Shown here: positions 67 through 48,946 of the stretch, piece after piece
Layout: every line of letters starts with the position of its first letter
Position numbering within the stretch: position 1 is the first letter of the stretch
IMG/VR virus record: IMGVR_UViG_3300049472_000168
Location: 64,001-128,000 of that record
Length of the DNA: 64,000 nucleotides
Direction: 5' to 3' (one strand)
Source of the DNA: a virus
Taxonomy: Duplodnaviria; Caudoviricetes
The notes under the pieces: generated by a model
Seen by the model: only the letters and a program-made list of their open reading frames with translations
What the model was told of the DNA's origin: nothing
The model's database searches: none
Program-made: the position numbers and the translations under genes

Positions 67-3000
67 ATGACAAACAGGCCACATACGCCTCATGAGGATT
101 TCAGGGCAAATGGATACATGAAAGCAGCGGTAAAGAAGGGCAATCCCAAGAGGGGATACTACTATCGTAATGTCGGCGAAGACTCAGGCTCTATTTCTGC
201 TGTGGTTCCTCCTGGTGGGGCCCATCTTAGAAGGCTAGATAGATCCCTGAGCAAGGCCGAATCTAAACCCAAAACACCCAAAATCCCGAAACCTCCGGAA
301 CTTGTCGTTACCCACAATCTGAGCGAAGACAAACTAAAACATGCCTCTGAGATAGGTGGTTTGATTGCTCCGTCTATTGCGATCCACCACAAAGAATACG
401 GCCACGACGGATTTGGAGAAATCTCCTTAATCGCTCCTCCCCATGTCGTAGACCCCAAGACAACCCCTGTTTTTGATGCCGATATCTATAGTCCACGACA
501 TCCTAGAGTTTTTCATAGTCTGAAGCCTAAGGAAGCCAAGGAATTCCTGACCTGGATCCGCCCCCACCAAAAAGAAGTCTCTAAGCATTACGCCAGCTTC
601 GATTCATTCGGCATCCACTTTAATTCGGACCAGATAAGCAAAGGCTTCGAGGATGGCCTGAGGCATAGCTTCCTTTCCGAGAAGGCTCCCGAAGTACTTA
701 GCAAAATTAAGGAGTCCGCAAAACCAACAACCATCGGGACGTATGAATACGACACCGACTGGGGAGCAATTCGGTATGGTATTCGCCAGCACATCGAGGA
801 TAGCGGACTCAAACCAGAATACGAGAAATATGCCAAAGAAAAAATAGCCCCAATACTGGGTGACAGATACTTCCTCAAGAACGGGAAGAAGAAGCCCTAT
901 ACCACGGAAAATGTTCTCAAAGAACTAACTTCTACGATAAGAAACGGCGAAGGCGGCATGTCTGGAGGCATGGGTCAGATCAGAGCTGCAGGGGCCAAGA
1001 AGTTCCGTTCCTTTGATCAACTCAAAGGCCATCAGGACAAATTGGGCAGGTATGGGGACAGCAATTTTCCATCCGAGATAGTTTCTGGGGACGGTAGACA
1101 GGTTAAATCCGTCAAATCTGCTAATTCAAAGAACTTCGAGGATATCTCTGATGCCCTGAAAACCGCCAATGATTCTGGATTTTCGACATGGGGCAGTTTA
1201 GACCAAACCTCTGATGTCATCAAACATCTGTATAAAACAAAAAATATCGATTCCGCCCTCAGAGCTGGAGGATTCAATCCAGAAAAGGTCAGTGCCGAGA
1301 CCAAAGCTAAGATCAGACAGTTAGCAGCAGACCTCGTAATGAGCCCTACCGAATACTTCGAGGCGAAACCTCAACGAGTCGTCGGAATCAATGAATTCAA
1401 AGCCGCCGCTATCCCTCATAACGCATCTCCTGATGTTGTGGGGCTCCTCAATCGTCATGGTATCCGACACATCGAGAGATACCAAAAGGACGACCCCATA
1501 GACCGAAAAAGGGCTGTACAGAGGGCGGCTGAGGCCAATGACTTGATGCTATCAGAGGATGACTTCTGGGAAGCTCTAGAATTTGAAGAACTCAAGAAAT
1601 CAAGAGATTCCGAGGTCCAGTCACTACTTAGACATCCGGACCCCGTAGAACGAAGTCTTGCCCTCAAGTTAGATAGCTGTAGTTCTCATGATATCCTGGA
1701 GGCTTCGCTAGACCCTCATCCGGATGTCTGGGCAGAGGCTCTGAATCATCCCGAAGCCAAACATGCTAGATCTGTTTTGTTGGCCTCTGCCAGGGCCCAT
1801 GACGGTACCGACCTCTGGGACCGACATCTTCACATCCTGAGCAATCCTGACCTCCCCGCAGCTCACGTCCATAAGCTGTACGACACCGTTCTGGGCGATA
1901 ACTCCCTGGAACCAGATATCAGGGCATCTCGACTCTACCAGATTTCGAGGCATCCTAGCTTTGGTGATGTCGAGATTCCCGAAGACCTCCACAAAGCTGA
2001 ATATCTGCTACCAGACCTCCACGGCGATGTCAATGAGCCTACTAGACCAGAGCTGGAGCCGCTAAAGGCTGCGTTTGGTACAGCTAAAACTGACAGGACA
2101 CCCAGTAGTAAGCAAATTACAAAGACCGGTGTCGAATCTGGAAAGAAGGTCGTCAACATCACGACCCCAGATGGGCCCCAGAGGCTACTGCTGAAGCCCT
2201 ATAAGACACTTTATAACACGGGTTGGCAGGAATTAAATTCCCAAGCTCTATATCACGCCGCTGGGATCGGAGACCTCCATCAAAAATCCTTCGTTACCCA
2301 TTACGAAGGCGAGCCCCATGTCGCAGTTCTGATTGAGCCCGGACATACTGCTGGATCTATGAATGATCTGATGCCTGGCCCAAAAACCAGAGCAGACGCA
2401 TCTGTGAGGAAGGCCTATGCCTGGGATCTGATTAAGCCACATCTTGGAGATGTCTCGAAGATCCATGTCATGGATTATATCCAGGACAACATCGACAGAC
2501 ATGATGAAAACCTACTGATTAGACCCGATGGCAGGCCTCTAGCCATAGATAATTCGGGGTCGGAAATACTCTGGGATCAACCTCATCATGGCTTCGAGTA
2601 CTTCTCCAGGAACCAAGGCAATTCCTTGACAGATGGAAGACTTGACGATCACATTGACACAATCAAATCGTGGTGGCCTCAGGTCGGACCCAAAATCCGA
2701 AGGGCCCTTTCCGATAGACTGAGGGACCTGCCTGAGGACAGAAGGAATTCTGTTATCAAACATTTTGGGGTCAGATTAAATCACCTCGACGACATCGCCA
2801 GTGGCAAGCTCCAGAAAGCCATCAAAGGCGCTGACCACCTCAAGGGTCCTGCCGCTGCGGTATCGGACGCCCTAGAAGACAAGCAATACAAGACGACGAA
2901 AGCGATTTCACCTCTGGACCTGTCATATTTTGCGGGTCAGGCCAAATTAGCAGAAAACAGAAACCATAGGATAGAATCATTCGAGGAACTCAACACAGCT

Positions 3001-5820
3001 CCTCATGATATTCAGCCAGAATCCCATACTCTAGACGGCATCGAGCCCAAAACGGTATACAGGAATCCTCAGACCCAGTCTCGGCACATGGTGAAGTCGG
3101 CACATTCTCCATTTTTGATGGGAGTGTTTCGCCAGATCCCTACATTCGAGGATTCCGAAGGATTCAAGCAAAACAAAGACTATTTCTACGAGGCCAATCT
3201 AAATTCTGGATGGTCAGAGGCCACGACTCAGGAATTGTATAAGGCAGGAGGGATTTCTGGTCTCTGCCAGTCGTCTCATATCGCTGATGTCGGAGGAAAA
3301 CCAGCACTAGTCATCCATATGGCTCATCACAGCTATGAGCCTATAGCTGATGTCCCGGCTACGGCAATAAATTCTTCGGTTGGTAATCCGGAGGGTGCCG
3401 AAGCATTTCGCCGGATTGGGTGGATGGATCGGCTGACCTTCAACTCAGACCGCCACGCCGGAAATCTCATGTTGAGCCGCAGCGGTGGCAGGCCTCTGGC
3501 CATAGATCACGGCAGATCTTTTTATGTCCCACACAGAGCAACACATGACGGGACCAAAACAGAAGATGTCGGACCTTTTCGTGCCAGTAAAAGTGAAGCC
3601 GAAAAATGGGGAAGACATTCGGCTCAGGTTCTTGGAGATAATTCCAGAGGATATCCAGACAAATTCTGGTGGGATTCGACCAAAGATGCAATGAAGGCTA
3701 GGTTTCATGAAATCGTCGATGCCACTGCTGGAGAGCATAGAGATACCTATATTAGCCATTTCGACCACAACCTAAGTCTGATGGATGCTGAGATTCAGGC
3801 CCATTATGCCAAGGAAAAAGAGAAAGCCGAGGCCTATGCCAGGGCTAAGCCTCAACGAGATGCTGAGAACGATGCGCTATTTGCGGAGTTAAATAAATCA
3901 GATTCTGGAACCGCTATGGCCCAGAACTTGGCTCGGCTCATCTCTGGACGGACTCGATCTGTAGAAAACAAACAGGCCTACGATATTCTTTCTGATCCCA
4001 AGCATACCGATGAAGTGATAGAGGCCATTAAGTCCAGGCCCGCTTTGGCTACAGATATCCTAGACCTAGGAGCTGAGGTCGGTGGATATAGAGATCTATT
4101 GAAGAGGATGCCCGATCCTGTAGTCAATGCTGTAGCTGATCATATCGATAAAGACCATCCCAACTCTAGTGTTTTCCTATACCAAATGGCGAGGCAGGGG
4201 GTTCTTAGTAGACTGACTCCAGATGTGTTGTCCCGGTACATATCCCATCCCAAGGCTGGGCCGGAAATGATGTCTGCGGTAAATGGAGCAAAAAACTCCG
4301 GATTCGACGGATCAAAGGTTTCAGAGAAGGACTGGGAGAACTATCTCAAATCTCCGACTACAACTGGTTCTCCTAATAATGCCTCTAAGGTATATAGGTT
4401 AAGAGTCCTTCATGAACTGGGAGGAAACGTATCTGATTCCGCTATCTCTAATGTTGTAGCGGAAATAAATCAAGACCTAGGCCCCTCTGCTCGCCAGAAT
4501 ATTTACAATAATATAGCAGCATACTCCAGAATTCCGGATTCGGTCTGGCCCGAAATGGTCGAAAACGCCCCCGGTGCCCTGCTACAAAATCCGAGACACC
4601 AAAACAATACCCCAGAACAAGACGCAGCCATTCTTAGGTCTGCTGTGGTGAAAAGGCAGTCTACTGAGATAGATGAAAACGACGCCCTTCGATATCCACA
4701 TGGCGAAATCAAAGGTAGGATAGAGAGAGCCTTCCTGAATTCAAGCCATTTGTTTGGGCAAGAGGAAAAGGCTAATCTGAATCAACTATTCAGAATGCAT
4801 CGGCTCGACCCCGATACCTTTAAACACCCAGACCTAAGCACCCAGGATGATATTCGATTAAGAGGAGGAAAGAAACACGGTGCTATTGACGTAAGAACTA
4901 ATACAATGAGACTTCGTCGTCTCAGAGACCACATCCTTCAGACCGGTAAAACAGAACTGAGCCCGAAGCACTTTACCCCAGACCTCAAGCCGCTACTTGA
5001 ACAGATTCCTTTTGCTAGGACTAAGTCTGGAGACATCTCGGCTGACCTAATACAGAAAGCGATTGACTCCACGCCTTCAACAAAATTCAATTGGGGCACG
5101 TCTGAATGGGATGGTGTCCAGAGACATAGTGTAGATCCATCTCACGTCTTCCAGCTCGATGTCTCCACAGATCACATCAAAAAAATGCACGAAGCCGGGG
5201 TTCTGGATTCTTTTTGGAAAAGACAAAAGATATCAGAAACCCATCCCATAAATACTCACACTGTGGGATGGGTCAGATATACCGGAAGACTTCCTATTCC
5301 TGCCTATCATGATCCCGGCAGTATCTTTATTGACGAGATCCAGAGCGATCACGCCGTACCTTATGTGAAGCAAATCGAATCCGAGACTCGTAGAGAATAT
5401 CCAGACGATCCAGCAGCAGTTGCTTACGCAGTAGACCGGGCCCAAAAACACTTACCCCTAGAACACCAGAAAAAGATCAACGAAATTATATTCGGTAGTG
5501 TTCATCCCAACAAGGTAGTAGCTGAGGCATTCTTGCAACATCTCAGAAACCTGGGAGATGGCAACACCTCAATCAGAACCCATACCGTGGAGTCTAAACT
5601 GCCGATTTCATTTAGCCACAAAGACGACAGCGACCGACCTACCCCACAGACGGCTCCTGTTCACTTCAAGGATACCTACGAAAAGATGCCCAAGGAATGG
5701 GGCATGAAACCGGCAACCTATGGAGATTCTCCAAGGATCCATAATACCGAGACCGGACCAGAAATGAAAGGCAAGCCGATTCAGGCCGGGGTGGTCCGCA
5801 AGACGGAAGACGTTGAATAG
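67..5820 (+). CDS. Large polyvalent (multi-domain) protein, 1917 aa: N-terminal conserved domain, HEAT-like repeats, two HipA/PI3K-like kinase domains, helical region, C-terminal EIQSD-motif domain; probable virion-internal protein
   Basis: Two kinase-like units: LLKPY..WQE..DYIQDNIDRHDENLL..PLAIDNS and MVKS..WSE..DRLTFNSDRHAGNLM..PLAIDHG. HEAT-like LLRHPDPVER/LDPHPDVW. GWVRY...IFIDEIQSD near the C-terminus. Junction motifs SLSKAE, ELKKSR, DLHKAE, KLQKAI, ELNKSD, LIQKAI. Confidence 0.75.
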   Translation: MTNRPHTPHEDFRANGYMKAAVKKGNPKRGYYYRNVGEDSGSISAVVPPGGAHLRRLDRSLSKAESKPKTPKIPKPPELVVTHNLSEDKLKHASEIGGLIAPSIAIHHKEYGHDGFGEISLIAPPHVVDPKTTPVFDADIYSPRHPRVFHSLKPKEAKEFLTWIRPHQKEVSKHYASFDSFGIHFNSDQISKGFEDGLRHSFLSEKAPEVLSKIKESAKPTTIGTYEYDTDWGAIRYGIRQHIEDSGLKPEYEKYAKEKIAPILGDRYFLKNGKKKPYTTENVLKELTSTIRNGEGGMSGGMGQIRAAGAKKFRSFDQLKGHQDKLGRYGDSNFPSEIVSGDGRQVKSVKSANSKNFEDISDALKTANDSGFSTWGSLDQTSDVIKHLYKTKNIDSALRAGGFNPEKVSAETKAKIRQLAADLVMSPTEYFEAKPQRVVGINEFKAAAIPHNASPDVVGLLNRHGIRHIERYQKDDPIDRKRAVQRAAEANDLMLSEDDFWEALEFEELKKSRDSEVQSLLRHPDPVERSLALKLDSCSSHDILEASLDPHPDVWAEALNHPEAKHARSVLLASARAHDGTDLWDRHLHILSNPDLPAAHVHKLYDTVLGDNSLEPDIRASRLYQISRHPSFGDVEIPEDLHKAEYLLPDLHGDVNEPTRPELEPLKAAFGTAKTDRTPSSKQITKTGVESGKKVVNITTPDGPQRLLLKPYKTLYNTGWQELNSQALYHAAGIGDLHQKSFVTHYEGEPHVAVLIEPGHTAGSMNDLMPGPKTRADASVRKAYAWDLIKPHLGDVSKIHVMDYIQDNIDRHDENLLIRPDGRPLAIDNSGSEILWDQPHHGFEYFSRNQGNSLTDGRLDDHIDTIKSWWPQVGPKIRRALSDRLRDLPEDRRNSVIKHFGVRLNHLDDIASGKLQKAIKGADHLKGPAAAVSDALEDKQYKTTKAISPLDLSYFAGQAKLAENRNHRIESFEELNTAPHDIQPESHTLDGIEPKTVYRNPQTQSRHMVKSAHSPFLMGVFRQIPTFEDSEGFKQNKDYFYEANLNSGWSEATTQELYKAGGISGLCQSSHIADVGGKPALVIHMAHHSYEPIADVPATAINSSVGNPEGAEAFRRIGWMDRLTFNSDRHAGNLMLSRSGGRPLAIDHGRSFYVPHRATHDGTKTEDVGPFRASKSEAEKWGRHSAQVLGDNSRGYPDKFWWDSTKDAMKARFHEIVDATAGEHRDTYISHFDHNLSLMDAEIQAHYAKEKEKAEAYARAKPQRDAENDALFAELNKSDSGTAMAQNLARLISGRTRSVENKQAYDILSDPKHTDEVIEAIKSRPALATDILDLGAEVGGYRDLLKRMPDPVVNAVADHIDKDHPNSSVFLYQMARQGVLSRLTPDVLSRYISHPKAGPEMMSAVNGAKNSGFDGSKVSEKDWENYLKSPTTTGSPNNASKVYRLRVLHELGGNVSDSAISNVVAEINQDLGPSARQNIYNNIAAYSRIPDSVWPEMVENAPGALLQNPRHQNNTPEQDAAILRSAVVKRQSTEIDENDALRYPHGEIKGRIERAFLNSSHLFGQEEKANLNQLFRMHRLDPDTFKHPDLSTQDDIRLRGGKKHGAIDVRTNTMRLRRLRDHILQTGKTELSPKHFTPDLKPLLEQIPFARTKSGDISADLIQKAIDSTPSTKFNWGTSEWDGVQRHSVDPSHVFQLDVSTDHIKKMHEAGVLDSFWKRQKISETHPINTHTVGWVRYTGRLPIPAYHDPGSIFIDEIQSDHAVPYVKQIESETRREYPDDPAAVAYAVDRAQKHLPLEHQKKINEIIFGSVHPNKVVAEAFLQHLRNLGDGNTSIRTHTVESKLPISFSHKDDSDRPTPQTAPVHFKDTYEKMPKEWGMKPATYGDSPRIHNTETGPEMKGKPIQAGVVRKTEDVE

Positions 5821-5846
5821 ACCAACAGACCTGGTATAATAAAACT

Positions 5847-6047
5847 ATGCAAGTCACAATCACACACCTTCACAACTCTGCGGTCGAAAACTTCAGGGGT
5901 GAGCCAAACCAAATCGGCCAGCAACTGTTGACACGGTTTCCATGGCTCTCCTACGACCCCTATAACCCGAATCACAGCCCCAGTAATTTCCCCGATATCA
6001 TTGCGAGACTAGCGGCTCAGCAGAATATCCATGTCAAAGTGATGTAA
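5847..6047 (+). CDS. Small protein (66 aa), stand-alone paralog of the N-terminal domain of the downstream kinase
   Basis: MQVTITHLH..FRG....LLTRFPWL aligns with MRLEIKNLH..FEG....LFYRFPWL of 6047-7345. Upstream TGGTATAAT-6nt-ATG. TAATG overlap with the next gene. Confidence 0.7.
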   Translation: MQVTITHLHNSAVENFRGEPNQIGQQLLTRFPWLSYDPYNPNHSPSNFPDIIARLAAQQNIHVKVM

Positions 6048-7345
6048 TGCGTCTAGAGATCAAGAACCTCCATAGCGAGACCTCGCAAGTTTTCGAGGGC
6101 ACCGAATCTGAAGTCAAGCGAGACCTCTTCTACAGGTTTCCTTGGCTGGCGAAGAAATTTGGCCTTCACGCCTCTGTAGGTATTTTGATTCACTCCCTGA
6201 ATCAGACCCAAGCTGTTGAGGTCATAGAGGAACCCGGAGATATCGAGGTTTCTGATATCTCGAAATCTGAAGTCATCAAAGCGCATCTGGGCCATTCCGA
6301 CACGTTGGAATCCGCACTTAGAGCAGCGGCTTTTCTCAGTGGGAAGGCAATAAATCCCGAAGCCATCAGAGCGGCTAGAAACACCACAGACGATCCCCAC
6401 GAGGTTGCTCTGATTGCTGCTGGACTCGGTATCGACAAGTTGAAGGCCCTCAAGGCAGTAATGACCTGGGACGAAGCCAAGAAATCAGAGACCAAGCCCT
6501 ATAAACCAGAAAACGTCCAGGCCGTGACTCCGGCAGGTAAAGAATTTGCAGATGCCGTCAGGGCGGCTGCGGAGTCTGGGGATATTTCTGAGGTCGATTT
6601 AGGTGGAGTCCACAGCGGAGGAAGCCTCCTGGCCAAGACTCCGGAGAACTCCACGATTCTGCTGAAACCGGGTAAGGGTCAGAACTCTCAGAGAGGTGCT
6701 CAGGATTCTTCGGGATCCCAGCCAAAGAGGGAATCTGCATTTTATGCGGCTTCCAAGATTTTAGGAATCCAGGATTTCATCCCGGAAACCCATCTTCTCC
6801 TGATCGATGGCGTCGAGTATTCAGCCATCCAGTTGCTGCCCTGGGACTTCCACGACATGAACGAGATGAAGGCAAAGGACCCCAGCGGTCCCAGGAGACT
6901 GCTTTCGCTCTACCTCAGCAGAGGAGACCTCCACAAATGGGCAGCAGCGGACTACATCTTGGGCAACCCAGATCGTAATGCTGGGAACATCATGATCAGA
7001 GGAGATATCCTCAATCTGATTGACCACGGCTCAGCTTTTGATGGAGAAAACTTCGACCCCGTCCATGATAACAAGAGCTTTGTCCCATATTACCTCAGAG
7101 TCTTTGTACCGAACTGGGCAGATCTCGACCAGGAATCGAGGTTTAAGGCGGCTCCACGAGTTTCTACAGAGATGGCAGCGGAACTGGGGGCCTGGGTCCA
7201 GTCCATCGATACCGATGCCTTAGCTCATGAGATATCGAGATACGGCATCGACCCGACCCCAGCCGTTATCAGACTTCAGAGATTGAAGGAAATCTGCTAC
7301 ACCATGGCCCCAGACCTAGCGATCAATTCGCTTTGGACTCTTTAG
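6047..7345 (+). CDS. HipA/PI3-PI4-kinase-like protein kinase with N-terminal accessory domains
   Basis: LGGVHSGG glycine loop, LLKPG Lys, RESAFY helix-C Glu, DYILGNPDRNAGNIM catalytic loop, LIDHGSAF. Confidence 0.75.
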   Translation: MRLEIKNLHSETSQVFEGTESEVKRDLFYRFPWLAKKFGLHASVGILIHSLNQTQAVEVIEEPGDIEVSDISKSEVIKAHLGHSDTLESALRAAAFLSGKAINPEAIRAARNTTDDPHEVALIAAGLGIDKLKALKAVMTWDEAKKSETKPYKPENVQAVTPAGKEFADAVRAAAESGDISEVDLGGVHSGGSLLAKTPENSTILLKPGKGQNSQRGAQDSSGSQPKRESAFYAASKILGIQDFIPETHLLLIDGVEYSAIQLLPWDFHDMNEMKAKDPSGPRRLLSLYLSRGDLHKWAAADYILGNPDRNAGNIMIRGDILNLIDHGSAFDGENFDPVHDNKSFVPYYLRVFVPNWADLDQESRFKAAPRVSTEMAAELGAWVQSIDTDALAHEISRYGIDPTPAVIRLQRLKEICYTMAPDLAINSLWTL

Positions 7346-8107: not shown

Positions 8108-8121
8108 ACCTCAAATATAAA

Positions 8122-11267: not shown

Positions 11268-11298
11268 TTGTTTAATATATCGGAAATCCAGAACAGAG

Positions 11299-13174: not shown

Positions 13175-13236
13175 GAAATAATTATATCGATTCTACCGAA
13201 TGTTGTCAACAATAAATGGGCCCCAATCTTTTAGGC
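13175..13236. promoter_or_regulatory. Representative divergent promoter pair: leftward sigma70-like TTGACA-17-TATAAT (leaderless) and rightward CAATCTT putative late promoter
   Basis: The same arrangement recurs at 19960-20015, 27111-27160, 29220-29270, 38506-38543 and 50146-50197. Confidence 0.7.
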
Positions 13237-13536
13237 ATGAATATTCCTAGTGGTCAGGTGTCATATCGTAAGAAGATAGGTAGATCTGCGTCTGGAGATG
13301 TCTTCGGTATCGGAACTATAGGCGGATTGCACCTCGTCGTAGCGGCTAGGTCTGGGTCCAAAATGGAAACCCTCGGCGCAGGTAGCCATCCCGGTATTGC
13401 CAGGCATCTTGCTAAAAAGTTCGATACCACAGTTGAATTTACCGAACTCAATAAATCCGAAACTTTAGAACTGCGTCATTTCGAGGATTTATTGCCGGGG
13501 TACGAAGAACTCACCCTACAGCTTCGCAATGGATAA
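13237..13536 (+). CDS. Hypothetical (putative late/virion) protein
   Basis: ORF 13216-13536; start revised to ATG 13237, 6 nt after CAATCTT; contains ELNKSE. Confidence 0.55.
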   Translation: MNIPSGQVSYRKKIGRSASGDVFGIGTIGGLHLVVAARSGSKMETLGAGSHPGIARHLAKKFDTTVEFTELNKSETLELRHFEDLLPGYEELTLQLRNG

Positions 13537-14365
13537 AGTCAAGACTGAGATCCAAGATGTCCTGACGATGGATATCCCGTCAGGGCTATCTAGCGCATTT
13601 GATATCGATGCGTTTGACGACGCCATCGAGGCCCACGGGGTCAGGTTTGTCCATTACCGTGGGATGCGTAACCCCGTAGGGATGATCGATAAATTCGATT
13701 CCAGACGACCTGATGCCGATCATAGTGGCGCCTCCAACGGATTGATTTATACCAAAGCCGGATGTTTCAGCGCCTTATTCACCGGCAATTCCAAGACTCT
13801 GAGGTCTATGGAAGGTGGCTACATCAATGCGGCAACAGCCCAGTTGACACCGACCCGGAAATACAGGAACTGTGAAGATTTTGTTTACTTGGCCCCGATG
13901 GACAGGCTCTACCTCGAAGAGGAAACCGTATTAGTTAGTCACCAGCAACTGGTAGATGCCCATGAGACCGGGGTCGATAAATTGAAGTTCCCTGCTGAAC
14001 GGGTCCAGGACATCGTAGACGCCACCAATACCAGATATAGTTCCTCTGACTACGTACTGGAAAATGGTCAGATCCGATGGACAACCCAGAACAGGCCGGG
14101 AACCAACCCAGAGACCGGCAAAGGCAAGGTCTATGCGGTTAGATACCTTTACCGCCCGTTTTGGTATATCGATAGACTGATTCACGAGGTCAGGGTCTCT
14201 CAGCAGGAGAATCCAATTACAGGAGAAACCAGAGCGGTAAGAATGCCGCAATCCGCTGTTGTCCAGCGGGAATACGTGTATGAATCGGAGCCCCAAGATC
14301 CTGAGGCTCCAGAATCTCCACGACAACAGAAGTCCCCTCGTTCAGGAGGCTTCGGTCCACGATAA
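13529..14365 (+). CDS. Putative head-tail connector / neck (head closure) protein
   Basis: Size, late-gene context and the pattern FDDAIEAHGVRFVHY..G..YTKA..LAPMDRL..YAVRYLYRPFWYIDRLIHEVR resemble neck proteins of large myoviruses (recognised by eye). Confidence 0.5.
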   Translation: MDKVKTEIQDVLTMDIPSGLSSAFDIDAFDDAIEAHGVRFVHYRGMRNPVGMIDKFDSRRPDADHSGASNGLIYTKAGCFSALFTGNSKTLRSMEGGYINAATAQLTPTRKYRNCEDFVYLAPMDRLYLEEETVLVSHQQLVDAHETGVDKLKFPAERVQDIVDATNTRYSSSDYVLENGQIRWTTQNRPGTNPETGKGKVYAVRYLYRPFWYIDRLIHEVRVSQQENPITGETRAVRMPQSAVVQREYVYESEPQDPEAPESPRQQKSPRSGGFGPR

Positions 14366-15144
14366 TGACAGACAAAGATAAATTCTTGGCCGCCACCATC
14401 GGGCTCAGAGGTCTGAGTGCTTTAGAGACTTTGTCCAAGGCGTCACCAGACCTCGAAGCCTATTTGCCGGTCAGAACAGTTATTTCTTGGATCCAAGAGG
14501 TCCAGGACTGGTCTGGTCCGATTCCTGGTACCGATTCCGTTGCTGACTTCAAGAAATCCTTAGGGGCCTGGTACGGCACCGTTGGAGTCGGAGATTCTAG
14601 TTACCTCCTCGATAGCTCCGATATCGGTTCAGTGGCTGCGGCTATTTGTTGCAGTATCGGGGCGGCCCCGGGTAGACCCGAACTCAGGGATATCGATATC
14701 GCTAGACTAGGCAAAACCATTGATGCCTTGGTTAAGGCCACGTCTGGAGCCAAAGGACTAGCCGCCGCTCCTCTGGGACACACCGACAAAATTCCTCCGA
14801 CTCTGAAGGCCCCTGATACCGATAACAAAAAATCTGACAAAAAGAAACCAAAGAAACCCGTGATTCCAAAACCACAGGCCCCAAAGGTTCCTCTAGACCT
14901 GACCGCTGAGGTCGAAGTCGCCAAGACCCCAAAGATGAAGCTGACTCTGTCCGAGGCTAAAACCAGGTGTCAGCTCTGCAATATCCCCCAGTTTGTTTCC
15001 AATAAATTTGTCGGCTGCTACTGCTTCAGAGACCTAGCCAAATCCGTACGGACTACCGAGATCCCCGGAGGCCTAGAAATTACACTAAAGGGCTGGGACG
15101 AGGACGCCACGATTACTTTGAGAGAGGCCCTAAAACATGAGTAA
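14365..15144 (+). CDS. Hypothetical putative virion protein with Pro/Lys-rich linker and CxxC/CxC motif
   Basis: Coupled ORF; TLSKAS, LVKAT and DLAKS motifs; CQLC...CYC. Confidence 0.55.
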   Translation: MTDKDKFLAATIGLRGLSALETLSKASPDLEAYLPVRTVISWIQEVQDWSGPIPGTDSVADFKKSLGAWYGTVGVGDSSYLLDSSDIGSVAAAICCSIGAAPGRPELRDIDIARLGKTIDALVKATSGAKGLAAAPLGHTDKIPPTLKAPDTDNKKSDKKKPKKPVIPKPQAPKVPLDLTAEVEVAKTPKMKLTLSEAKTRCQLCNIPQFVSNKFVGCYCFRDLAKSVRTTEIPGGLEITLKGWDEDATITLREALKHE

Positions 15145-28343: not shown

Positions 28344-28927
28344 TGGCCATAGTTGAATCCGAATAAATAGGTCTGTCCGTTTATTTTTACTTCGGAGTCA
28401 AAACTGCCACAACATCCTCTTTGTTGCGCTTTGCGATATCTCCTGCGGTCTGGAGAATTGCTCTTCAGGGCCCATCTCCAGTTATCGACGCATTTCTTGT
28501 CTGCTGATGCGTCTAGGATTGCTGCTTCGATTTGGTGTCCAATCTCAAACCCGTATTGATTTATTGGAGAACTCAGCCTTCTCCTGTGGACAGCATCCCT
28601 GGCATCAAATCTGGCCTGTTTTACAATAGACCTCGCCAGGGCCTTATTTTTTGAGTCAATGACTTGGAGAGGCTTCCTCATCGAGCCGATGCCCTTTTCC
28701 TCCATGTCCTTAAAGACCTGTTTCCAGTACTGCTTATCATAAGAGCCGAAAAATAGCGATTTCAGGTAATTCCGTACCTCAAGCCTACAGGTATTGAAAT
28801 GCTCGCCCTCCGGCATCTCGCCACAGGCGCAGATTTCCACAGCTCCCTCTCCTGGTCGAAAGAATCCTGCCCAGCCCGGAAGGATTCTAGGATCTGAAGG
28901 ATGCATGAATCTGTAATTATGTCTCAT
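28340..28927 (-). CDS. Hypothetical protein
   Basis: 195-aa ORF ending GCCGSFD...FGFNYGH. Confidence 0.55.
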   Translation of the reverse strand: MRHNYRFMHPSDPRILPGWAGFFRPGEGAVEICACGEMPEGEHFNTCRLEVRNYLKSLFFGSYDKQYWKQVFKDMEEKGIGSMRKPLQVIDSKNKALARSIVKQARFDARDAVHRRRLSSPINQYGFEIGHQIEAAILDASADKKCVDNWRWALKSNSPDRRRYRKAQQRGCCGSFDSEVKINGQTYLFGFNYGH

Positions 28928-29219
28928 TTCCTGCTCGACGCCTGGTGCGCTCGTTCTGAATGGTCTTCAGGTTGTAATAGATCGTCCGGATATCTTCTTC
29001 CATGGCTCCAAGACTCAACATACGCTCGGTATGCTCGTCTTCGGCGGCAGCGAAAGCCTCATTTCCCAGGGGATAATAATCCCTAACATGAGGAGCACAT
29101 TGACGCAGGGCCTTCTCCAGATTCCGGATGGCATCCAGGGCGTCTGAATAGGTCTCTGTCAAATAATCCAGACCGCTTCCGTTGAGGTGAATCGCTGGCA
29201 TCGTTGGTGTTTTGCTCAT
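28917..29219 (-). CDS. Hypothetical protein (IHLNG..PHVRDYY motif)
   Basis: Start revised to 29219, behind TTGACG-17-TATTTA-7-ATG. Confidence 0.6.
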   Translation of the reverse strand: MSKTPTMPAIHLNGSGLDYLTETYSDALDAIRNLEKALRQCAPHVRDYYPLGNEAFAAAEDEHTERMLSLGAMEEDIRTIYYNLKTIQNERTRRRAGNET

Positions 29220-29317
29220 GCATTTATAAATACCAGGGTTTCGGGCTGGCGTCAAGACCTTAATCTTACAGGCTGGAAGGAAATCCCTTTTGAGGGGGAT
29301 TCAAAAGGAGAACAACC

Positions 29318-29725
29318 ATGGCGAACGCGATTTATACGGCAGCAAAAAAGGCACTTCTGGACGGCGATATTGACCTCTTGGTCAACGATATCAAGGCCGT
29401 ATTGGTAGATACCAACGATTACACCCATAACATCGCTACCAACGATTTTCTCGATGATATCAGTGCTGGTGTAGTCGCGACCTCGGCCAATCTCGCAAAC
29501 AAGACCTCTACAGGTGGAGTCTTCGATGCCGATGATGTCGTTTTTTCGACCGTTACCGGGGATGTCTGCGAGGCCGTTGTTCTCTATGTTGATACCGGGG
29601 TGGCTTCTACTTCTAGACTGATTGCCTTTTTCGATACCGGAGTAGGATTGCCGGTGACTCCTGGTGGCGGCAATATCACGATTACGTGGTCCAATGGGGC
29701 CAACAAGATTTTCTCGTTGACATAA
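29318..29725 (+). CDS. Virion structural protein (minor tail/fibre-associated)
   Basis: MANAIY..AK..LL.GDID...IKAVLVD..Y...FDADDV.F...LIAFFD...PGGGNITITW, a pattern of phage minor tail proteins; AAGGAG Shine-Dalgarno. Confidence 0.65.
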   Translation: MANAIYTAAKKALLDGDIDLLVNDIKAVLVDTNDYTHNIATNDFLDDISAGVVATSANLANKTSTGGVFDADDVVFSTVTGDVCEAVVLYVDTGVASTSRLIAFFDTGVGLPVTPGGGNITITWSNGANKIFSLT

Positions 29726-29744
29726 TCCCTTTGGGGTCCAATAA

Positions 29745-30284
29745 ATGCCCACTCGTACTTATGCTATTTATGTTGGCCGTAAAAGTAACGGAAGCATCGT
29801 CTATTCGTCTTTTACGCAGCCAACACCTACGGCTGAACAGGCCCTCACTTCAGTAGTGAGACGACTCGGCGGGGCCCCCGAGGACTACGCCGTAGTCCTG
29901 CTTACGGATGAGACCTTATTTAATAGGATTAGCGCCAAAGAACTCGTCACTCTCCGAGTACAGGAGACCAACGGAACCTGGGACCTGGTTGCTGACTTTA
30001 GTCAAGAAGACAATGTTGTTGTTCTGAGTCCGAGTTTTTCTAGCAATATGATCCAGTACGGGAATAACGTTACTATAACTGTAACTGCCTCTAGGTCAGT
30101 AAATGTGTCTGCTAAGATCCCGATCAATACTCCAATCGGGAATGCTTTGCTTCATCTAGATTTCGTCGATGGAATTGCGACTAGAACCATCAATCTTTCC
30201 CATTTCGGTAGATGGATTATTCCTGCCTCTAGAACAAATACTTGGAAAATTACTGAGGACGCTACAGTAAACGCGTTTATCTAA
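29745..30284 (+). CDS. Putative structural protein
   Basis: Beta-rich ORF inside the structural operon. Confidence 0.5.
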   Translation: MPTRTYAIYVGRKSNGSIVYSSFTQPTPTAEQALTSVVRRLGGAPEDYAVVLLTDETLFNRISAKELVTLRVQETNGTWDLVADFSQEDNVVVLSPSFSSNMIQYGNNVTITVTASRSVNVSAKIPINTPIGNALLHLDFVDGIATRTINLSHFGRWIIPASRTNTWKITEDATVNAFI

Positions 30285-30287
30285 AAC

Positions 30288-33002
30288 GTGGCAATTGTTT
30301 CAATACAGCGAGGATTCTCTTCTCTAACAGAGTCTCCTGACAACGTAGCAGTACATGCACTTTCGTCTGTTACCCTCGCAAATACAGTAGTATTCTGGCA
30401 GCTTAGGGCTGACTCCTACAATCCAAGAGCAAGAGCAGCAATAGTTCGTCTTACAGATGTAGACGAGCTTACGGTCGAAATCTTTGGTGCTTCAGGCGTA
30501 GACACCACGATTCAGTGGTGGGTTGTAGAGTTTGACGATGTCACGGTACAGGCAGCAGTATATGCGGCATCAGGCAGTAACACATCGCAAACCGAAACAA
30601 TAAGCACTGTAGACCTAGACGAATCGTTCCCGATATCGTCAAATATATCGTCCTTGACTAGCTGGTCTTACGGTGAAGGTATTCGCGTACTGCTACCGTC
30701 AACTACGCAGATAAGATGGCGAGCGGCTTGGTTTCTAGATGGACGTAATTTAAGCTATCAGGTCGTCTCATGGCCAGGGGCATCGGTACAACATGCTTTA
30801 TTGGGGCTCAACGACGCAAGCACAGATAGCGACACCGCCTCGATAACTGCTGTAGATCTAGACCGAACATTCGTTATCTCTTCGTCATATATCGAAGCGG
30901 CTGTAGGTGTTACAGCGGGTAGCGATGTCCCATTGGTGTCATTTGACGACACCGACACGATCAGGATTCAGCGTCCCTCTGGTGGGTCTACTGCGTTTTA
31001 CGACGATGGATCTGAAAAGGGTTGGGGTGCAGAAATCGTCGAATTGCCGACCGGATATACTGTTCAGTATATATCCGGAACAATTGCAAACGGAGATTTA
31101 TCAGAAGACGTATCGATTACAGCGGTCGATCCAGACTCAGTCGTTATCGGTGCCGGTCTCTGGAGCTGGGCAAGCGGGCACAGCTCATCTGGCGATGCCG
31201 GTGATTCTTGGAGCACGGCAACACTATTTGATACCGATACACTTAGAGTTGAGCGTGATTCGTCTGGCACAGATGCTAGTTATGCATTCTTCGTTATTTC
31301 ACAGGATAGCGCAGATCTCGTAGTTGAACCCAACGGCATAGCCCAAGGAACAGCTCTGGGAGATCCTTCGGTAGCTCTAGATCTGTCTCCAGGCAGTATT
31401 AGTCAGAGCATCGCTCTGGGTAGCCCGTCTGTAGTTCTCGATCTGTCTCCAAGCAGTATAACTCAAGGAGTAGTTCTAGGGGACCCGTCAGTAGCTCTGG
31501 ATCTGTCTCCAGGCAGTATCGCTCAAGGAACCGCTCTAGGAAGCCCTTCGGTGTCTCTAGCCCTGTCTCCGGACAGCATTGGTCAGGGAATAGCTTTAGG
31601 TAACCCTGGGGTCAGTCTCGAAATTTCCCCAGAGGGAATCGGCCAAGGAACAGCCTTAGGTAGTCCGTCGATATCCCTAGACATATCTCCTGCTAGTATC
31701 GTTCAGGGCATCGGCCTGGGTAGCCCTTCCATAGCGGCAGGACTAAATATTTCTCCAGACAGCATTGGTCAGGGAATCGTCCTAGGCAGCCCCTCGGCAG
31801 GACTAAGTGTTTCTCCAAATAGCATCGTTCAATCAATCAATCTGGGAGAACCCACAGTAGTTGGACCCGGAGGAATCTCTCTAGGAAGCATCCAGATTCA
31901 GATCGTCCTAGGCAGTCCCGAAGTCTCTGCCCAGGTAGCTTTTAGTTCTCAGCAAAATAATGAACTTCCCCGTAGACCTAATCTATTGGTCAGGGCTCTA
32001 CAGCCTCTACCTAAATCCATGACCGAAGCCAGAGGAATCCATCAGTCCGACGTAATAATGAGGACAGCTCTGGTAATGGCGATAGCCGACTTGAGAGCCA
32101 GACCTTGGCTGCTTGAATACGTCTTTGCCTCATTGATTGACGATTTAGAGACGGCTCATATCTATGGCGAAAAAGAACGCCAAAAAGCCAAGGAATGGTT
32201 TCTTAACACCGACATCCCTGTAGTCATGGATTACAGGATGGATGACATCGAAGGGACCTGTATATCGATATCGCTAGTGGAATCCTCTGAGGCCGAAGTG
32301 ACTCTAGCCGATGTCCACTATATCCCGACCGAAGAGACCGAGGCAGTATGGCCTCCTTTGACCTCGGAATTTACTCCGACCTCATATTATGCGACCACAG
32401 GGATAATTGGGATCCCAACAGAAATCGGGGACGGCCTCGTCATTTCTCCTGGCATGGTTCTGGTCGATTCCAGTGGCAAACACCACGAAATCCTCGGAGT
32501 CTCGGATCGATATACGATTCAGATAGCTCCAACTGTCGCCAATTTTACGTCATCTCTGATTAAATCTTCAAAACCACGACTCATTACGTCTATAGAATCT
32601 GTCTCGATGCGGGAATCCTACAGAATAGGCTGCCACGCCCATGGCGAACCATTCTTCTTGACCTGGCTCCATGCCATTGTTGTGTTTATTCTGTTGAAGT
32701 ACAAAGAAGCTCTCCTGGAGGCCAGGGGATTTGAGAGGTCTACCATTTCGTCGGCCCCATTCTCTAAGAACGAAGCCTTTGGTCAAGAAAACGTCTGGAC
32801 CCGATTTATTACTATCAACGGATATGTCCGTCAGTACTGGCCCAAGGCTAGCGGCGAAAGAATCCTAAGTGTCGGTGCCGATGGCGGCATCAAGTATTCC
32901 AGAACCGGGGAACTAGCAGAGGTCTTTGTACCTCAAGACGGCTTCGAGGATGGCGAGGCACCCTGGATGAGCCAAGACGGTGTCGGAATTATTGTCAAAT
33001 AG
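30288..33002 (+). CDS. Structural fusion protein: beta-repeat N-terminal domain, 20-aa tandem repeats, C-terminal putative tail-terminator/neck domain
   Basis: Repeated S/T-rich units (AVDLD..F.ISS), about ten repeats, then a globular domain from MTEARGIHQSD (32019). Confidence 0.55.
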   Translation: MAIVSIQRGFSSLTESPDNVAVHALSSVTLANTVVFWQLRADSYNPRARAAIVRLTDVDELTVEIFGASGVDTTIQWWVVEFDDVTVQAAVYAASGSNTSQTETISTVDLDESFPISSNISSLTSWSYGEGIRVLLPSTTQIRWRAAWFLDGRNLSYQVVSWPGASVQHALLGLNDASTDSDTASITAVDLDRTFVISSSYIEAAVGVTAGSDVPLVSFDDTDTIRIQRPSGGSTAFYDDGSEKGWGAEIVELPTGYTVQYISGTIANGDLSEDVSITAVDPDSVVIGAGLWSWASGHSSSGDAGDSWSTATLFDTDTLRVERDSSGTDASYAFFVISQDSADLVVEPNGIAQGTALGDPSVALDLSPGSISQSIALGSPSVVLDLSPSSITQGVVLGDPSVALDLSPGSIAQGTALGSPSVSLALSPDSIGQGIALGNPGVSLEISPEGIGQGTALGSPSISLDISPASIVQGIGLGSPSIAAGLNISPDSIGQGIVLGSPSAGLSVSPNSIVQSINLGEPTVVGPGGISLGSIQIQIVLGSPEVSAQVAFSSQQNNELPRRPNLLVRALQPLPKSMTEARGIHQSDVIMRTALVMAIADLRARPWLLEYVFASLIDDLETAHIYGEKERQKAKEWFLNTDIPVVMDYRMDDIEGTCISISLVESSEAEVTLADVHYIPTEETEAVWPPLTSEFTPTSYYATTGIIGIPTEIGDGLVISPGMVLVDSSGKHHEILGVSDRYTIQIAPTVANFTSSLIKSSKPRLITSIESVSMRESYRIGCHAHGEPFFLTWLHAIVVFILLKYKEALLEARGFERSTISSAPFSKNEAFGQENVWTRFITINGYVRQYWPKASGERILSVGADGGIKYSRTGELAEVFVPQDGFEDGEAPWMSQDGVGIIVK
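31321..31930 (+). repeat. Degenerate ~60-bp (20-aa) tandem repeat, about 10 copies
   Basis: Consensus (D/E)LSPxSIxQGxxLGxPSVxL. Confidence 0.85.
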
Positions 33003-33013
33003 AAGAGGAAACC

Positions 33014-33247
33014 ATGAAAGCAGTTATAGAAGGTATCAGTTGTGAGGGGACCCCAGAGGAAATCGCTGAAATCGTAAGGCTTCTGAAGGATCCCCAAACA
33101 TTTCAGGTTCCCCAGGTCCCTTTTATTCCTCAATTCACCTACATATGCAGTCACGATTTCCCTCAGATATGGCATGGCGTGATTCCTCCGGTCTGTTCCA
33201 AGTGTGGACTACAGGCGCAGTCCTCCTCACTAACCTTTACTGTTTAG
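33014..33247 (+). CDS. Small Cys-containing hypothetical protein
   Basis: GAGG Shine-Dalgarno; EGTPEEIAE and C.HDFP...CSKCG motifs. Confidence 0.55.
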   Translation: MKAVIEGISCEGTPEEIAEIVRLLKDPQTFQVPQVPFIPQFTYICSHDFPQIWHGVIPPVCSKCGLQAQSSSLTFTV

Positions 33248-33249
33248 CA

Positions 33250-35151
33250 ATGGCACATAACAGTTACGCTTGGCATGATGGTCATACCTCGTTCCATCTC
33301 GGAATGAAGAAGACAGATCATCCCAACACCATGGCTCATGGGCCCATAGGAAATGACCAGGCCGCTGGGGTGGGGTCGAAAGACTACGGCAGGATGGCGG
33401 CACCTTATGGTACTGTGACGAAGGGCGTCAAAACCAACCTCAAGTTTTATCCTTTGGAAGGCAAGCACCAAGAAGCCTCGAAGCAGGTAACAGATCATGG
33501 CTACCAGGTTTATTATGCCGGTGGCCCCCATGGGAAGCCAGACCTAGCTACTAAGAACTACAATACTAAAAATTTGATGATATATGACCCCAGTGCTGGA
33601 TCTGGAGGCGACTTCGGGGACACCTCCTATACCGACGCCTGGCGTAAGACCCATGAACTGGCCCATGCTTTGACTTATGGAGATGTCAACAGTCTCTATG
33701 GCGAAGGTCGAAGGATCGGAGCATTAGGCAAACACAGGACCCCGAGAGAAGCCAAAAGAGCGGTTCATTGGGAATGGCTAGTTGCCCACAAACAGCGAGA
33801 ACTGGCTAAGCAACTAGGTGTCCATATCAGTGATGCTGATTTTAATCGAGAAACCAATACGGTTATGCATGATGCCGTTCATCGTGCTATCACGGGCAAG
33901 TTCAGCGAACCCGGAGACGAAGGATTTAGTCCTCACCCTCACAAGGTTCCTCTGGAAACAGCTCTAGGTATGATTGACCAAGAATCGAAAAGACTCGGAC
34001 TCAGGCATGACGACGATCTATTGCAGAAGTCCGAATTAGTCAAATTTTGTAGCCCTGACACAGAACTTAATCTTTCCGTTACTACTGGGAGTCACATGGA
34101 CGCCAAAACACTTAAATCCGAACTAGCTAAATCACTTCGCAGCGTTGTTGAGGCCCATGCCAAGACTACTACTGGACTCATCGCATCAGAATCCAGAGGT
34201 CTCGAAAAACTCAATAAATCTGATATCGAGAAATGCGGAGAAATCGAGAAATCCGATGTCGAGCCCGCAGAGTCTTCGAGCTGTCCCGGATGTGGTGGTG
34301 AATCCCACGAACTCGGCCCCATGGGTCGGAGGAAGCATTTTATGTGTAAGGGCTGCGGCCTGACCCACAGCAGAGGGGAAGAGACTCCCTCTAAGGAAGT
34401 CAAGAAAGAAGAGCTTCCTGCTGTTAAGGCTGCTGATGAGAAGCCACGAGATGGCGCCGTGATGCCTGATGACAAAAAGTCTAAGGTTGTCGATGCCGAA
34501 GGTGCCGGTGGTGATGTCTCTAAAGGCAAGATGGCTAAGAGGGAGACCGCATTCGTCAAGAAGCCCGCTGCTGATGACATCCAGGCTCCGATTAGCGGTG
34601 GTGAAAAGAAAGCTGCCGGTATCGGATTCCTTAACGGCCTGATTTCAAAGTTTCATGGTGCCGGAGACAAGACCTGGGCTAAGACTGGTCAGACAGCCCC
34701 TAGTCCCGGTGCAGTGGCAAGACGAACTGGTTCCAGAATGGCTCTTGCAGAGATGCCTCATCAGAACGATGGTGCCAAGATGCAATCCAACGGGACCACT
34801 GTCCCAATGGGCAAGACAACTGCCGAAGAAGCCAACAAGGAAATCAAGGGCTTCAAGTCTATCTTCAATAATCCTACGGCTTTCCCCAAGGGTAAAATGT
34901 CCTTTACCGGTGGCCATACTTCAGTGGCTGGAGCCGACAAGGAAATTCGAGGCTTCAAGTCGCTGAATCTGAAGCCTCCGATGGTCAAGGATGAGATCCC
35001 AGCAGCTCCAAAGGCTCCCTCAGCCAAAGCGACGAAGCCCCCTAAGGTCGCCCCTGTTCCGACTCCGAAGACCCCTAAAGTCGAAGGCCCCAAGGCTCCT
35101 GGAGCCACGGCAAAGGCTGAAAAGAAGTCCGACAAGAAGTCGAAGAAATAA
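33250..35151 (+). CDS. Multi-domain putative head-internal protein: zincin-like HExxH domain, zinc ribbon, Pro/Lys-rich tail
   Basis: THELAH; CPGC...CKGC; dense K|S motifs (LLQKSE, TLKSE, LAKS, LNKSD, IEKSD). Start revised from 33145 to ATG 33250. Possible internal start at 34096. Confidence 0.6.
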   Translation: MAHNSYAWHDGHTSFHLGMKKTDHPNTMAHGPIGNDQAAGVGSKDYGRMAAPYGTVTKGVKTNLKFYPLEGKHQEASKQVTDHGYQVYYAGGPHGKPDLATKNYNTKNLMIYDPSAGSGGDFGDTSYTDAWRKTHELAHALTYGDVNSLYGEGRRIGALGKHRTPREAKRAVHWEWLVAHKQRELAKQLGVHISDADFNRETNTVMHDAVHRAITGKFSEPGDEGFSPHPHKVPLETALGMIDQESKRLGLRHDDDLLQKSELVKFCSPDTELNLSVTTGSHMDAKTLKSELAKSLRSVVEAHAKTTTGLIASESRGLEKLNKSDIEKCGEIEKSDVEPAESSSCPGCGGESHELGPMGRRKHFMCKGCGLTHSRGEETPSKEVKKEELPAVKAADEKPRDGAVMPDDKKSKVVDAEGAGGDVSKGKMAKRETAFVKKPAADDIQAPISGGEKKAAGIGFLNGLISKFHGAGDKTWAKTGQTAPSPGAVARRTGSRMALAEMPHQNDGAKMQSNGTTVPMGKTTAEEANKEIKGFKSIFNNPTAFPKGKMSFTGGHTSVAGADKEIRGFKSLNLKPPMVKDEIPAAPKAPSAKATKPPKVAPVPTPKTPKVEGPKAPGATAKAEKKSDKKSKK

Positions 35152-48907: not shown

Positions 48908-48946
48908 TCGCGTCGGGTAGTTCCAGGAATCATCCAGTCCTCAAGT

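Follow-up and report, generated by a model that had tools for sequence, protein, structure and literature searches.

Putative head protease sites mark the module borders of multi-enzyme polyproteins in a relative of Myxococcus phage Mx1

A 1392-residue phage protein (P0001) and two companion chains are strings of enzyme modules in which a short motif, [L/V/I/M]-x-K|[S/A/T]-[E/D], stands at nearly every junction. They are encoded in and upstream of a 64,000-nucleotide stretch of DNA, referred to here as the window, which comprises bases 64001-128000 of the 138,265-bp IMG/VR record IMGVR_UViG_3300049472_000168 (linear, completeness estimate 84%). The motif is very probably the site of the phage's own head maturation protease. 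The reading that we favour, with a probability of about 0.65, is that these lysine-site chains are diced in the prohead and the resulting enzymes delivered into the host with the DNA.

By its genes, the source is an uncultured myovirus related to Myxococcus phage Mx1, with head genes of the SPO1/Herelleviridae type. Its major capsid protein is 56% identical to that of Mx1 and ~25% identical to the capsid proteins of SPO1-like Herelleviridae (SPO1, CP-51 and relatives). Mx1 has a genome of 169.6 kb and a long contractile tail (Mx1 genome announcement). Capsid proteins 54-71% identical to the present one are found on at least 154 IMG/VR contigs, many of them 150-180 kb in length, and the phage therefore belongs to a sizeable uncultured clade.

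Lysine sites in the polyproteins

P0001 (window 20641..24819, + strand) was divided into modules using Pfam, PHROGs, an AlphaFold model and blocks of homology to relatives. It opens with an mCpol domain (residues 1-147), followed by a helical domain (187-274), a first GNAT domain (287-413), a domain matching phrog_2563 (~447-562), a ParB_N-like domain (~616-695), a second GNAT domain (~700-850), a module with an R-S-ExE pattern (~893-1082), a third GNAT domain (~1100-1290) and a conserved C-terminal tail (1329-1392). The mCpol domain scores 34.1 bits against Pfam PF18182 (cut-off 26.4), covering profile positions 1-114 of 114, and the first 120 residues match Panoptes OptS structures with a TM score of 0.85 and an rmsd of 1.9 Å (Foldseek). 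Pfam and PHROGs also recover the three GNAT domains, and ParB_N below threshold.

A preliminary description of the window, made from its letters alone, had proposed most of these domain names. Those of the mCpol, GNAT and kinase domains are borne out by Pfam and PHROGs and that of the ParB-like domain by a sub-threshold match, but two others are not confirmed. The domain at 447-562, called GNAT-like, has as its sole match a PHROG without assigned function. The R-S-ExE module, called ADP-ribosyltransferase (ART)-like, has no Pfam hit at E<=1 and no PDB profile match, and its AlphaFold model (pLDDT 46) is unusable. In an alignment of seven homologues the H-R, S-W and S-A-W motifs of this module are invariant, while E-x-E is present in most rows, not all.

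The codons of the site lysines lie at window 21076, 21460, 21931/21946, 22342, 22705/22720, 23206/23317, 23884/23902 and 24559, corresponding to K146, K274, K431/K436, K568, K689/K694, K856/K893, K1082/K1088 and K1307. All of the lysines that the preliminary description listed, here and in 67-5820, are found where it placed them. A lysine site is present at 8/8 junctions and is canonical at 7; the junction before the ART-like module reads K|G. The non-canonical P1' residues of the chain are those of K856|E and K893|G. The start of the ART-like module is always [DE]-L-x-K|G-A-M-x-R-L-x-P-F-x-P, both here (window 23317-23350) and in homologues, with glycine at P1'; the conserved peptide that follows the site recurs before a second copy of the module in protein P0143.

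The second chain, P0007, is a 2167-residue protein of which the C-terminal 1939 residues are encoded in the window (1..5820, + strand). The preliminary description had correctly found the motif in 67-5820, which is the tail of an open reading frame (ORF) beginning 683 nt upstream of the window. P0007 consists, in order, of a NUDIX domain, a WWHGTPSG domain, a PBECR5 nuclease-like domain, helical repeats, two PI3/PI4-kinase-like domains, a helical region and a C-terminal domain (Pfam E-values of 1.2e-22 for NUDIX, 2.8e-18 for PBECR5 and 1.5e-12 for PI3_PI4_kinase). Its site lysines have codons at window 253, 1597, 1993, 2815, 3895, 5056 and 5800, with K134 upstream of the window. The blocks of sequence that it has in common with relatives terminate at 136-141 (site K134), 309-311 (K313), 757-761 (K761) and 873-901 (K893).

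Sites at module borders and through domain shuffling

That the sites sit at module borders is supported by four lines of evidence: a structural model, the ends of homology blocks, gene boundaries in relatives and the disorder of the flanking sequence. An AlphaFold model of P0001 residues 1-450, built from a 50-sequence alignment, has a mean pLDDT of 81. In this model the terminal helix of mCpol runs to residue 147, residues 150-184 are disordered, a four-helix domain occupies 187-274, and a short weak linker leads to the GNAT domain (287-413), with disorder from 418. K146 and K274 end terminal helices and K431/K436 lie in the disordered linker, while the loose matches K96 and K368, which have no acidic P2' residue, are buried inside domains. 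The flanks of strict sites are more disorder-prone than those of other lysines (p = 7e-4, TOP-IDP scale).

The mCpol-headed proteins form a phage family of more than 250 clusters (253 at E<=1e-30 in a search of 1.84 billion cluster representatives), and the best 150 of these 253 were re-aligned to P0001 by phmmer without reference to the motif. Block ends pile up at 145-154, 260-279, 430-439, 685-694, 855-859 and 1085-1089, and block starts at 280-294, 565-589 and 1305-1340. A strict site, of which there are six, lies within 10 residues of 45% of the 535 internal block endpoints, and for random lysines or positions the figure is 9-10% (p<2e-4); since the homologues are often related to one another, these endpoints, like the column counts below, are non-independent events. 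Together with the model, this test upholds the view of the preliminary description that the signal lies in the position of the motif rather than in a mere count. The column consensus after mCpol, in 140 homologues, is E-Y-L-x-K-[AS], with lysine in 126/141, and that after the helical domain is [LVMI]-x-K-[SA]-E, with lysine in 114/141.

Gene boundaries and domain order in relatives tell a similar story. The third chain, P0006 (1240 residues), carries the head protease at its N-terminal end and a GGDEF cyclase domain at its C-terminal end; in Mx1 the cyclase is a separate gene, whose start corresponds to the LNK|TE site of P0006 (K1020|T). L011, a relative, splits the P0006 chain near K855, and another relative, L010, lacks the segment from ~391 to ~769. 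The NUDIX domain is N-terminal here and in L010 and internal in a 1479-residue protein of Mx1; the ParB-like and GNAT modules of P0001 occur in this NUDIX chain of Mx1, and the mCpol and helical unit is there a separate 468-residue protein. The Mx1 counterparts have the accessions WNM70322 (protease chain), WNM70333 (NUDIX chain), WNM70334 (kinase) and WNM70340 (mCpol protein).

Sites persist through this shuffling, a check that the preliminary description had called for and that holds in Mx1, L010, protein P0014 and the 140 homologues. VQK|SE here corresponds to VQK|SE in Mx1, and LHK|AE after the NUDIX domain to LKK|SE in L010. The LHK|AE site that precedes the WWHGTPSG domain has LAK|SD as its counterpart in P0014, although the upstream domain differs. 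Among 12 GNAT modules from six proteins, nine have a site 15-37 residues upstream of their Y-[ST]-H-[LV]-L anchor, and two of the exceptions read K|M. The motif is kept even where neighbouring linker residues and the codons have diverged. The possibility of a DNA-level repeat at the junctions was considered and rejected, as the site codons differ freely; the motif is therefore a feature of the protein.

The conserved tail of P0001 comprises ~65 residues (window 24625-24816, residues 1329-1392; consensus ...NGKVKVQHADGKKSWKQVRAGMIQ...GANSHPVSSREPG.K). It forms the extreme C-terminus in all of 66 homologue clusters and in the mCpol protein of Mx1. Members of the family thus have the mCpol and helical head and the tail in common, and differ in the enzyme cassette between them. 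The tail was also considered as a general capsid-targeting signal and rejected in this role, as it is confined to the mCpol family.

Enrichment of the motif

Counts were made of a strict motif, [LVIM]xK[AST][ED], with cleavage assumed after the lysine, and of a loose form, [LVIM]xK[AST], without the acidic P2' residue; expected numbers come from shuffles within each protein. Across the 138-kb genome, an enrichment of 8-10x in the strict form is restricted to two classes of protein. In the canonical head substrates (portal, protease chain, scaffold and capsid) there are 10 strict sites against 0.99 expected (p = 1e-7). In the polyprotein candidates there are 16 against 2.08 (p = 8.5e-10), the p-values of this class being post hoc because its members were picked by the motif in the first place; no such selection enters into the head-substrate class or into any of the tests on relatives. 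The large tail-region proteins have one site against 0.72 expected, and everything else in the genome 17 against 12.6, neither being significant. The contrast between polyproteins and tail proteins is one that the preliminary description had asked to see examined, and it came out as predicted.

The five most strongly enriched proteins of the genome are the three polyproteins, a 668-residue protein (P0003) and the portal; individual counts are 6 observed against 0.55 expected for P0001, 5 against 0.83 for the full P0007 and 4 against 0.34 for P0003. Control motifs with R or E in place of K, with the order reversed or with G, N or Q at P1', are not enriched in this genome. The loose form is enriched 1.3-1.4x genome-wide and also occurs inside domains (K96, K368, K1226 and K1309 in P0001); intradomain matches had been noted from the start.

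The pattern recurs in relatives. In Mx1 enrichment is strongest in the scaffold, the NUDIX chain and the portal. Across 80 metagenomic loci of the clade, observed and expected numbers are 175 and 9.2 for the scaffold (19x), 23 and 5.1 for the portal (4.5x), 66 and 14.5 for homologues of the protease chain (4.5x) and 30 and 6.2 for homologues of the other polyproteins (4.8x), with flat controls. In 145 clusters of P0001 homologues 221 sites are observed against 37.1 expected, and the controls stand at 0.55x. A reading in which the motif arises by chance or composition in long Lys/Glu-rich proteins could appeal to the genome-wide excess of the loose form and to its intradomain cases, but is rejected, with next to no probability left to it, by the shuffles (p 1e-7 to 1e-9), the flat controls, the replication in Mx1, 80 loci and 145 clusters, and the positional tests (p<2e-4).

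The head protease and its canonical substrates

The preliminary description had placed the prohead protease outside the window, and a protease of Herelleviridae type is indeed encoded 8 kb upstream, at the N-terminal end of P0006 (genome 52327-56049). Residues 1-165 of P0006 align with the head maturation protease of CP-51 (blastp E 7e-6), and a profile of four Mx1-like sequences matches the SPO1/CP-51 protease profile with an hhalign probability of 96.9% (E 1.5e-10). A histidine (H52, in N-W/Y-E-H) and a serine (S133, in S-I/V-E-G), found here as NWEH and SIEGS, are invariant in four relatives. The orthologue in Mx1 is annotated as a putative prohead protease, and the P0006 gene stands between those for the portal and MuF-like proteins and that for the capsid protein. 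Owing to its divergence, the protease escapes sequence searches with Pfam and of PDB and is recognised solely by pairwise and profile comparison with SPO1 and CP-51; models of the HK97-type capsid (PF05065) and of S78 and S77 proteases have no match anywhere in the genome.

The capsid protein begins with ~11 variable residues, followed by L-x-K-A-[LM]-E-A-G, which reads QALIK|ALEAG here. L10, K12 and A13 are invariant in four relatives, the preceding residues being variable, and the site aligns with ALNK|ALEAG of SPO1 and ALNK|ALSAG of CP-51. In Mx1 it reads L-R-K, and for Listeria phage A511 a cut at Lys23|Ser24 has been reported in this position. The proposal that the capsid propeptide should end in the same motif as the polyprotein junctions is in this way supported. 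The scaffold of this genome has 6-7 sites, the last of which, TLTK|SDRDL, is kept in Mx1 and L010. In SPO1 and CP-51 the scaffolds contain 11 [LVIM]xK[AST] sites each against 1.2 expected, the proteases 5-6 and the portal N-termini 2, and the downstream tail proteins essentially none. When all 1037 lysines in 38 clade scaffolds are counted without regard to the motif, leucine at P3 is over-represented by x3.3, serine at P1' by x2.3 and glutamate at P2' by x2.5. Taken together, the evidence from protease, capsid and scaffold indicates that this motif is what proteases of the family recognise. The identification of the motif as a prohead protease site has passed each in silico test that the preliminary description had proposed, and scaffold and portal are among the carriers of the motif.

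Immediately after a K|A site, P0006 contains a 25-residue copy of the mature capsid N-terminus (genome 53176-53250; L009:6176-6250), 68% identical to it (KAIEAGSLDGAPSSRTQGAALQRED vs KALEAGSYDAAPGTLTQGSALQIED). Such a copy suggests that the protease chain co-assembles with the shell, and the segment may be a mimic of the capsid N-arm that docks the protease in the prohead. A similar segment is seen in the SPO1 and CP-51 proteases (EK|ALSAGYE..NPEDMEGG).

Packaging and proposed mechanism

Prohead proteases normally act within the assembled prohead; if a protein is under selection for sites of such a protease, its presence in the prohead is implied. Several further observations bear on packaging. 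All of the polyprotein genes lie within the late structural block that also contains the terminase, portal, MuF-like and capsid genes. In this genome the protease itself is fused to more than 1000 residues ending in the GGDEF cyclase. In four relatives (L023, L028, L033 and L036) the prohead-protease ORF carries a kinase-like module, joined in L036 by a ParB-like one; here, such modules are in separate polyproteins. The protease ORFs of relatives reach 1132-1569 residues, with a short version of 727 residues in L010. Judging from these differences in length and content, the cargo on the protease chain differs strongly from one member of the clade to another. We infer from gene position, protease fusion, the fused modules of relatives and the selection for sites that the polyproteins are head cargo.

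In the mechanism that we propose, the protease, which would be the N-terminal ~175 residues of P0006, recognises the motif given above and is predicted to trim the capsid protein after K12, shred the scaffold, clip the portal at both ends and free itself at a conserved site following its own domain. The same motif lies at nearly every junction of the protease-GGDEF (1240 residues), NUDIX-PBECR5-kinase (2167 residues) and mCpol-GNAT-ParB (1392 residues) chains. These chains would first co-assemble into the prohead. The activated protease would then cut them into single folded enzymes, too large to exit the shell, and the enzymes would finally enter the host along with the DNA; from the outset of infection, their targets would be the nucleotide signalling, RNA and proteins of the host. 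Cleavage of the polyproteins at the motif is likely; delivery of the pieces into the host is the less secure part, and is favoured by a narrow measure.

The presence of mCpol, of GGDEF on the protease chain and of NUDIX suggests interference with host cyclic-nucleotide signalling. A more far-reaching version can be put forward only tentatively. In this version the protease is a dicing enzyme, a portable L-x-K|S-E code lets any enzyme module join a capsid-loaded chain or the protease itself, the modules come free in the head as separate folded enzymes and are injected together with the DNA, and the payload rewrites the cyclic-nucleotide immunity of the host before phage gene expression. The payload would consist of two nucleotide cyclases (mCpol and GGDEF), a NUDIX hydrolase, kinases and acetyltransferases, and its targets would include, for example, Panoptes, CBASS and type III CRISPR.

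Several points weigh against the mechanism as proposed. No terminal capsid-targeting peptide common to the polyproteins was found; P0001 and P0007 begin directly with their mCpol and NUDIX domains, and their first sites are K146 and K134. The EYLxK|A sequence is so conserved (126/141) that it may, in addition, have a structural role in the C-terminal helix of mCpol. Two ClpP-like proteases are encoded elsewhere in the genome. To these may be added the post hoc choice of the polyprotein class and the relatedness of the homologues, both noted above.

Alternative explanations

The alternative that survives best, although unlikely, accepts the protease site as genuine and holds that the polyproteins are cut in the cytoplasm, in the style of an RNA virus, or in the head without being delivered, their modules acting late or serving as head filling. 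A protease fused to more than 1000 residues of non-scaffold sequence would be unusual for an enzyme strictly confined to the prohead, and the lack of a common capsid-targeting signal also fits this reading. However, the genes stand in the late structural block beside those of the portal, MuF-like and capsid proteins, and modifiers of host signalling, RNA and proteins would be of little use if first made at the end of the cycle. The copy of the capsid N-arm on the protease chain likewise points to co-assembly with the shell. Packaging and ejection of such proteins also have precedents in T4 Alt and the SPN3US head proteins (PMC5512222, PMC10052503).

Slightly less probable again is that the motif in the polyproteins is an uncut signature of linkers or helix caps at borders competent for recombination, the real substrates being scaffold, capsid and portal only. 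Two sites do cap terminal helices in the AlphaFold model, the nearly invariant EYLxK|A resembles a structural element, and modules are duplicated and shuffled together with their flanks. Yet the identical five-residue pattern saturates the scaffolds of the clade and of SPO1 and CP-51, and it is conserved while linker sequence and codons diverge. An uncut linker signature would also have to accommodate the absence of the motif from the large multi-domain tail proteins of the same genome, the lack of enrichment of the R, E and reversed controls, and the coincidence of gene boundaries in relatives with the sites.

It is improbable, more so than either of the foregoing, that some other protease cuts the sites, whether a phage ClpP-like protein, the HExxH domain of the 668-residue protein or a host enzyme. 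ClpP-like genes are present at genome 8795-9394 (- strand) and at window 63220-63993 (+ strand; PF00574, E 5.2e-15), but both lie outside the head module, and ClpP degrades its substrates processively, with no cutting at a defined Lys|Ser bond. P0003 does contain a HELAH motif, but its HExxH domain has no family match. Processing by metallopeptidase domains has been predicted for polyvalent proteins (PMC5512222). The motif here, however, is common to the head substrates of Herelleviridae, whose protease homologue sits in this genome between the portal and capsid genes.

Relation to known systems

The preliminary description had presented the arrangement as a candidate new system; to call it a new system is an overstatement. 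Packaged multi-domain proteins and head cargo processed by proteases are already known from polyvalent proteins (PMC5512222) and from the T4 Alt and internal proteins and SPN3US (PMC9026906, PMC10052503). What is new is a lysine-specific code of Herelleviridae type at nearly every enzyme junction, and a protease that is itself fused to effector-like domains. No paper was found in the literature on such processing in Mx1-like phages or on a junction motif in polyvalent proteins, and the Mx1 genome announcement contains neither proteomics nor an analysis of the polyprotein homologues.

The closest relation is to head maturation in SPO1-like phages (SPO1, CP-51 and A511), with which the present phage has in common a homologous protease and capsid protein, an aligned L-x-K|A/S capsid site, a motif-saturated scaffold and sites in the portal and protease. 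In SPO1 and CP-51, however, the protease is a stand-alone protein of 253-256 residues and the substrates seen are structural, whereas here it heads a 1240-residue chain ending in GGDEF, and multi-enzyme proteins are divided up by the motif as well.

Polyvalent proteins of phages and conjugative elements, for which capsid packaging and proteolytic release have been predicted (Iyer, Burroughs, Anand, de Souza and Aravind 2017; PMC5512222), are also giant multi-domain proteins of conflict type. They occur in portal-terminase phages, carry PBECR5, ParB-like, kinase and acetyltransferase domains and are extensively shuffled. The same features are present here in P0001 (mCpol, three GNAT and ParB_N-like domains), P0007 (NUDIX, PBECR5 and two kinase-like domains) and P0006 (GGDEF), in the context of a head module. 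The difference lies in processing: PMC5512222 proposes autoprocessing by embedded zincin-like metallopeptidases, without a junction motif or a role for the prohead protease. Pfam finds no peptidase family in P0001 or P0007, an embedded metallopeptidase being common but not obligatory in polyvalent proteins.

In T4, the prohead takes in non-structural proteins (IPI-III and Alt, an ADP-ribosyltransferase among them), which its protease gp21 cuts at a short consensus and which are injected with the DNA (PMC5512222, PMC9026906). These are single-function proteins, each cut once, after glutamate, with loss of a short N-terminal capsid-targeting peptide, whereas here the predicted cut follows lysine, a chain has as many as 8 internal junctions, and no targeting peptide is seen at the N-terminus. 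In phiKZ and SPN3US (proteases gp175 and gp245), many internal head proteins, enzymes among them, are processed at a short motif and believed to pass into the cell (PMC10052503, PMC5694885), and the protease cuts itself. There, the cuts remove N-terminal propeptides, which mostly leave the head, rather than dividing strings of enzymes, and the specificity is not that of the lysine site here. Panoptes OptS, finally, is a stand-alone bacterial defence enzyme, whereas the phage mCpol heads a late polyprotein with a variable cassette and a conserved tail.

If the predicted cuts occur, the phage would do with injected cargo what RNA viruses do with their polyproteins, obtaining from one late gene separate enzymes in stoichiometric amounts, already loaded in the capsid. 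The step by which phage polyvalent proteins are processed, so far a matter of guesswork, would also be accounted for. A simple sequence rule would then predict both capsid cargo and the borders of unknown domains in a large and almost unstudied clade. The payload (mCpol, GGDEF, NUDIX, kinases, acetyltransferases and the PBECR5 nuclease-like domain) makes hypotheses of instant counter-defence testable. As Mx1 can be cultivated on Myxococcus xanthus, the claim is open to direct test.

Other candidate cargo proteins and gene neighbourhood

A further PI3/PI4-kinase-like protein of 432 residues (P0004; window 6047..7345, + strand; Pfam) has sites in its N-terminal region at K73 (ISK|SE), K78 and K146 (AKK|SE), the first and last of which the preliminary description had pointed out. 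Homologues in L010 (K68 and K149) and Mx1 (K237) have sites at similar positions. In L023, L028, L033 and L036 its kinase-like module is part of the prohead-protease ORF. P0004 may be cargo from which an N-terminal piece is removed, and probably belongs to the polyprotein set.

The 668-residue P0003 (window 33145..35151, + strand) has its HExxH motif in an N-terminal domain (window 33145-34030) that may be a zincin-like peptidase. The whole protein has no family match in Pfam or PHROGs, and an Atlas search of the HExxH domain gave sub-threshold leads alone. Also present are a cluster of four strict sites (K56, K295, K358 and K369), a Cys4 zinc-ribbon-like segment and a Lys/Pro/Ala-rich tail; the earlier remark that the motif is dense in 33250-35151 is borne out by this ORF. 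It is uncertain whether P0003 belongs to the set of cut polyproteins, although possibly it does.

Small late proteins encoded next to a virion structural protein gene (window 13216..15144, + strand) had also been said to carry the motif, at 13237 and 14365. There is no site at exactly these positions. The nearest are K80 (LNK|SE), the one strict site of ORF 13216-13536, and K25, the nearest to 14365 of five loose sites in ORF 14365-15144. On this weak evidence, it is possible that these ORFs encode minor head or internal proteins.

The remainder of the head module lies upstream of the window. It comprises genes for the terminase (genome 45533-47536), the portal (48523-50595), the MuF-like minor head protein (50596-51387), an acidic, Pro/Glu-rich, scaffold-like protein of 294 residues (57241-58125) and the major capsid protein (58147-59544). 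A search of GenBank phage DNA with the polyprotein gene gave no near match. Between the genes for the MuF-like protein and the protease chain, the late block has an insertion, a homing-endonuclease-like gene (phrog_314; genome 51761-52327). Directly before the P0001 gene lies a small gene (window 20016-20564) whose product matches phrog_5356.

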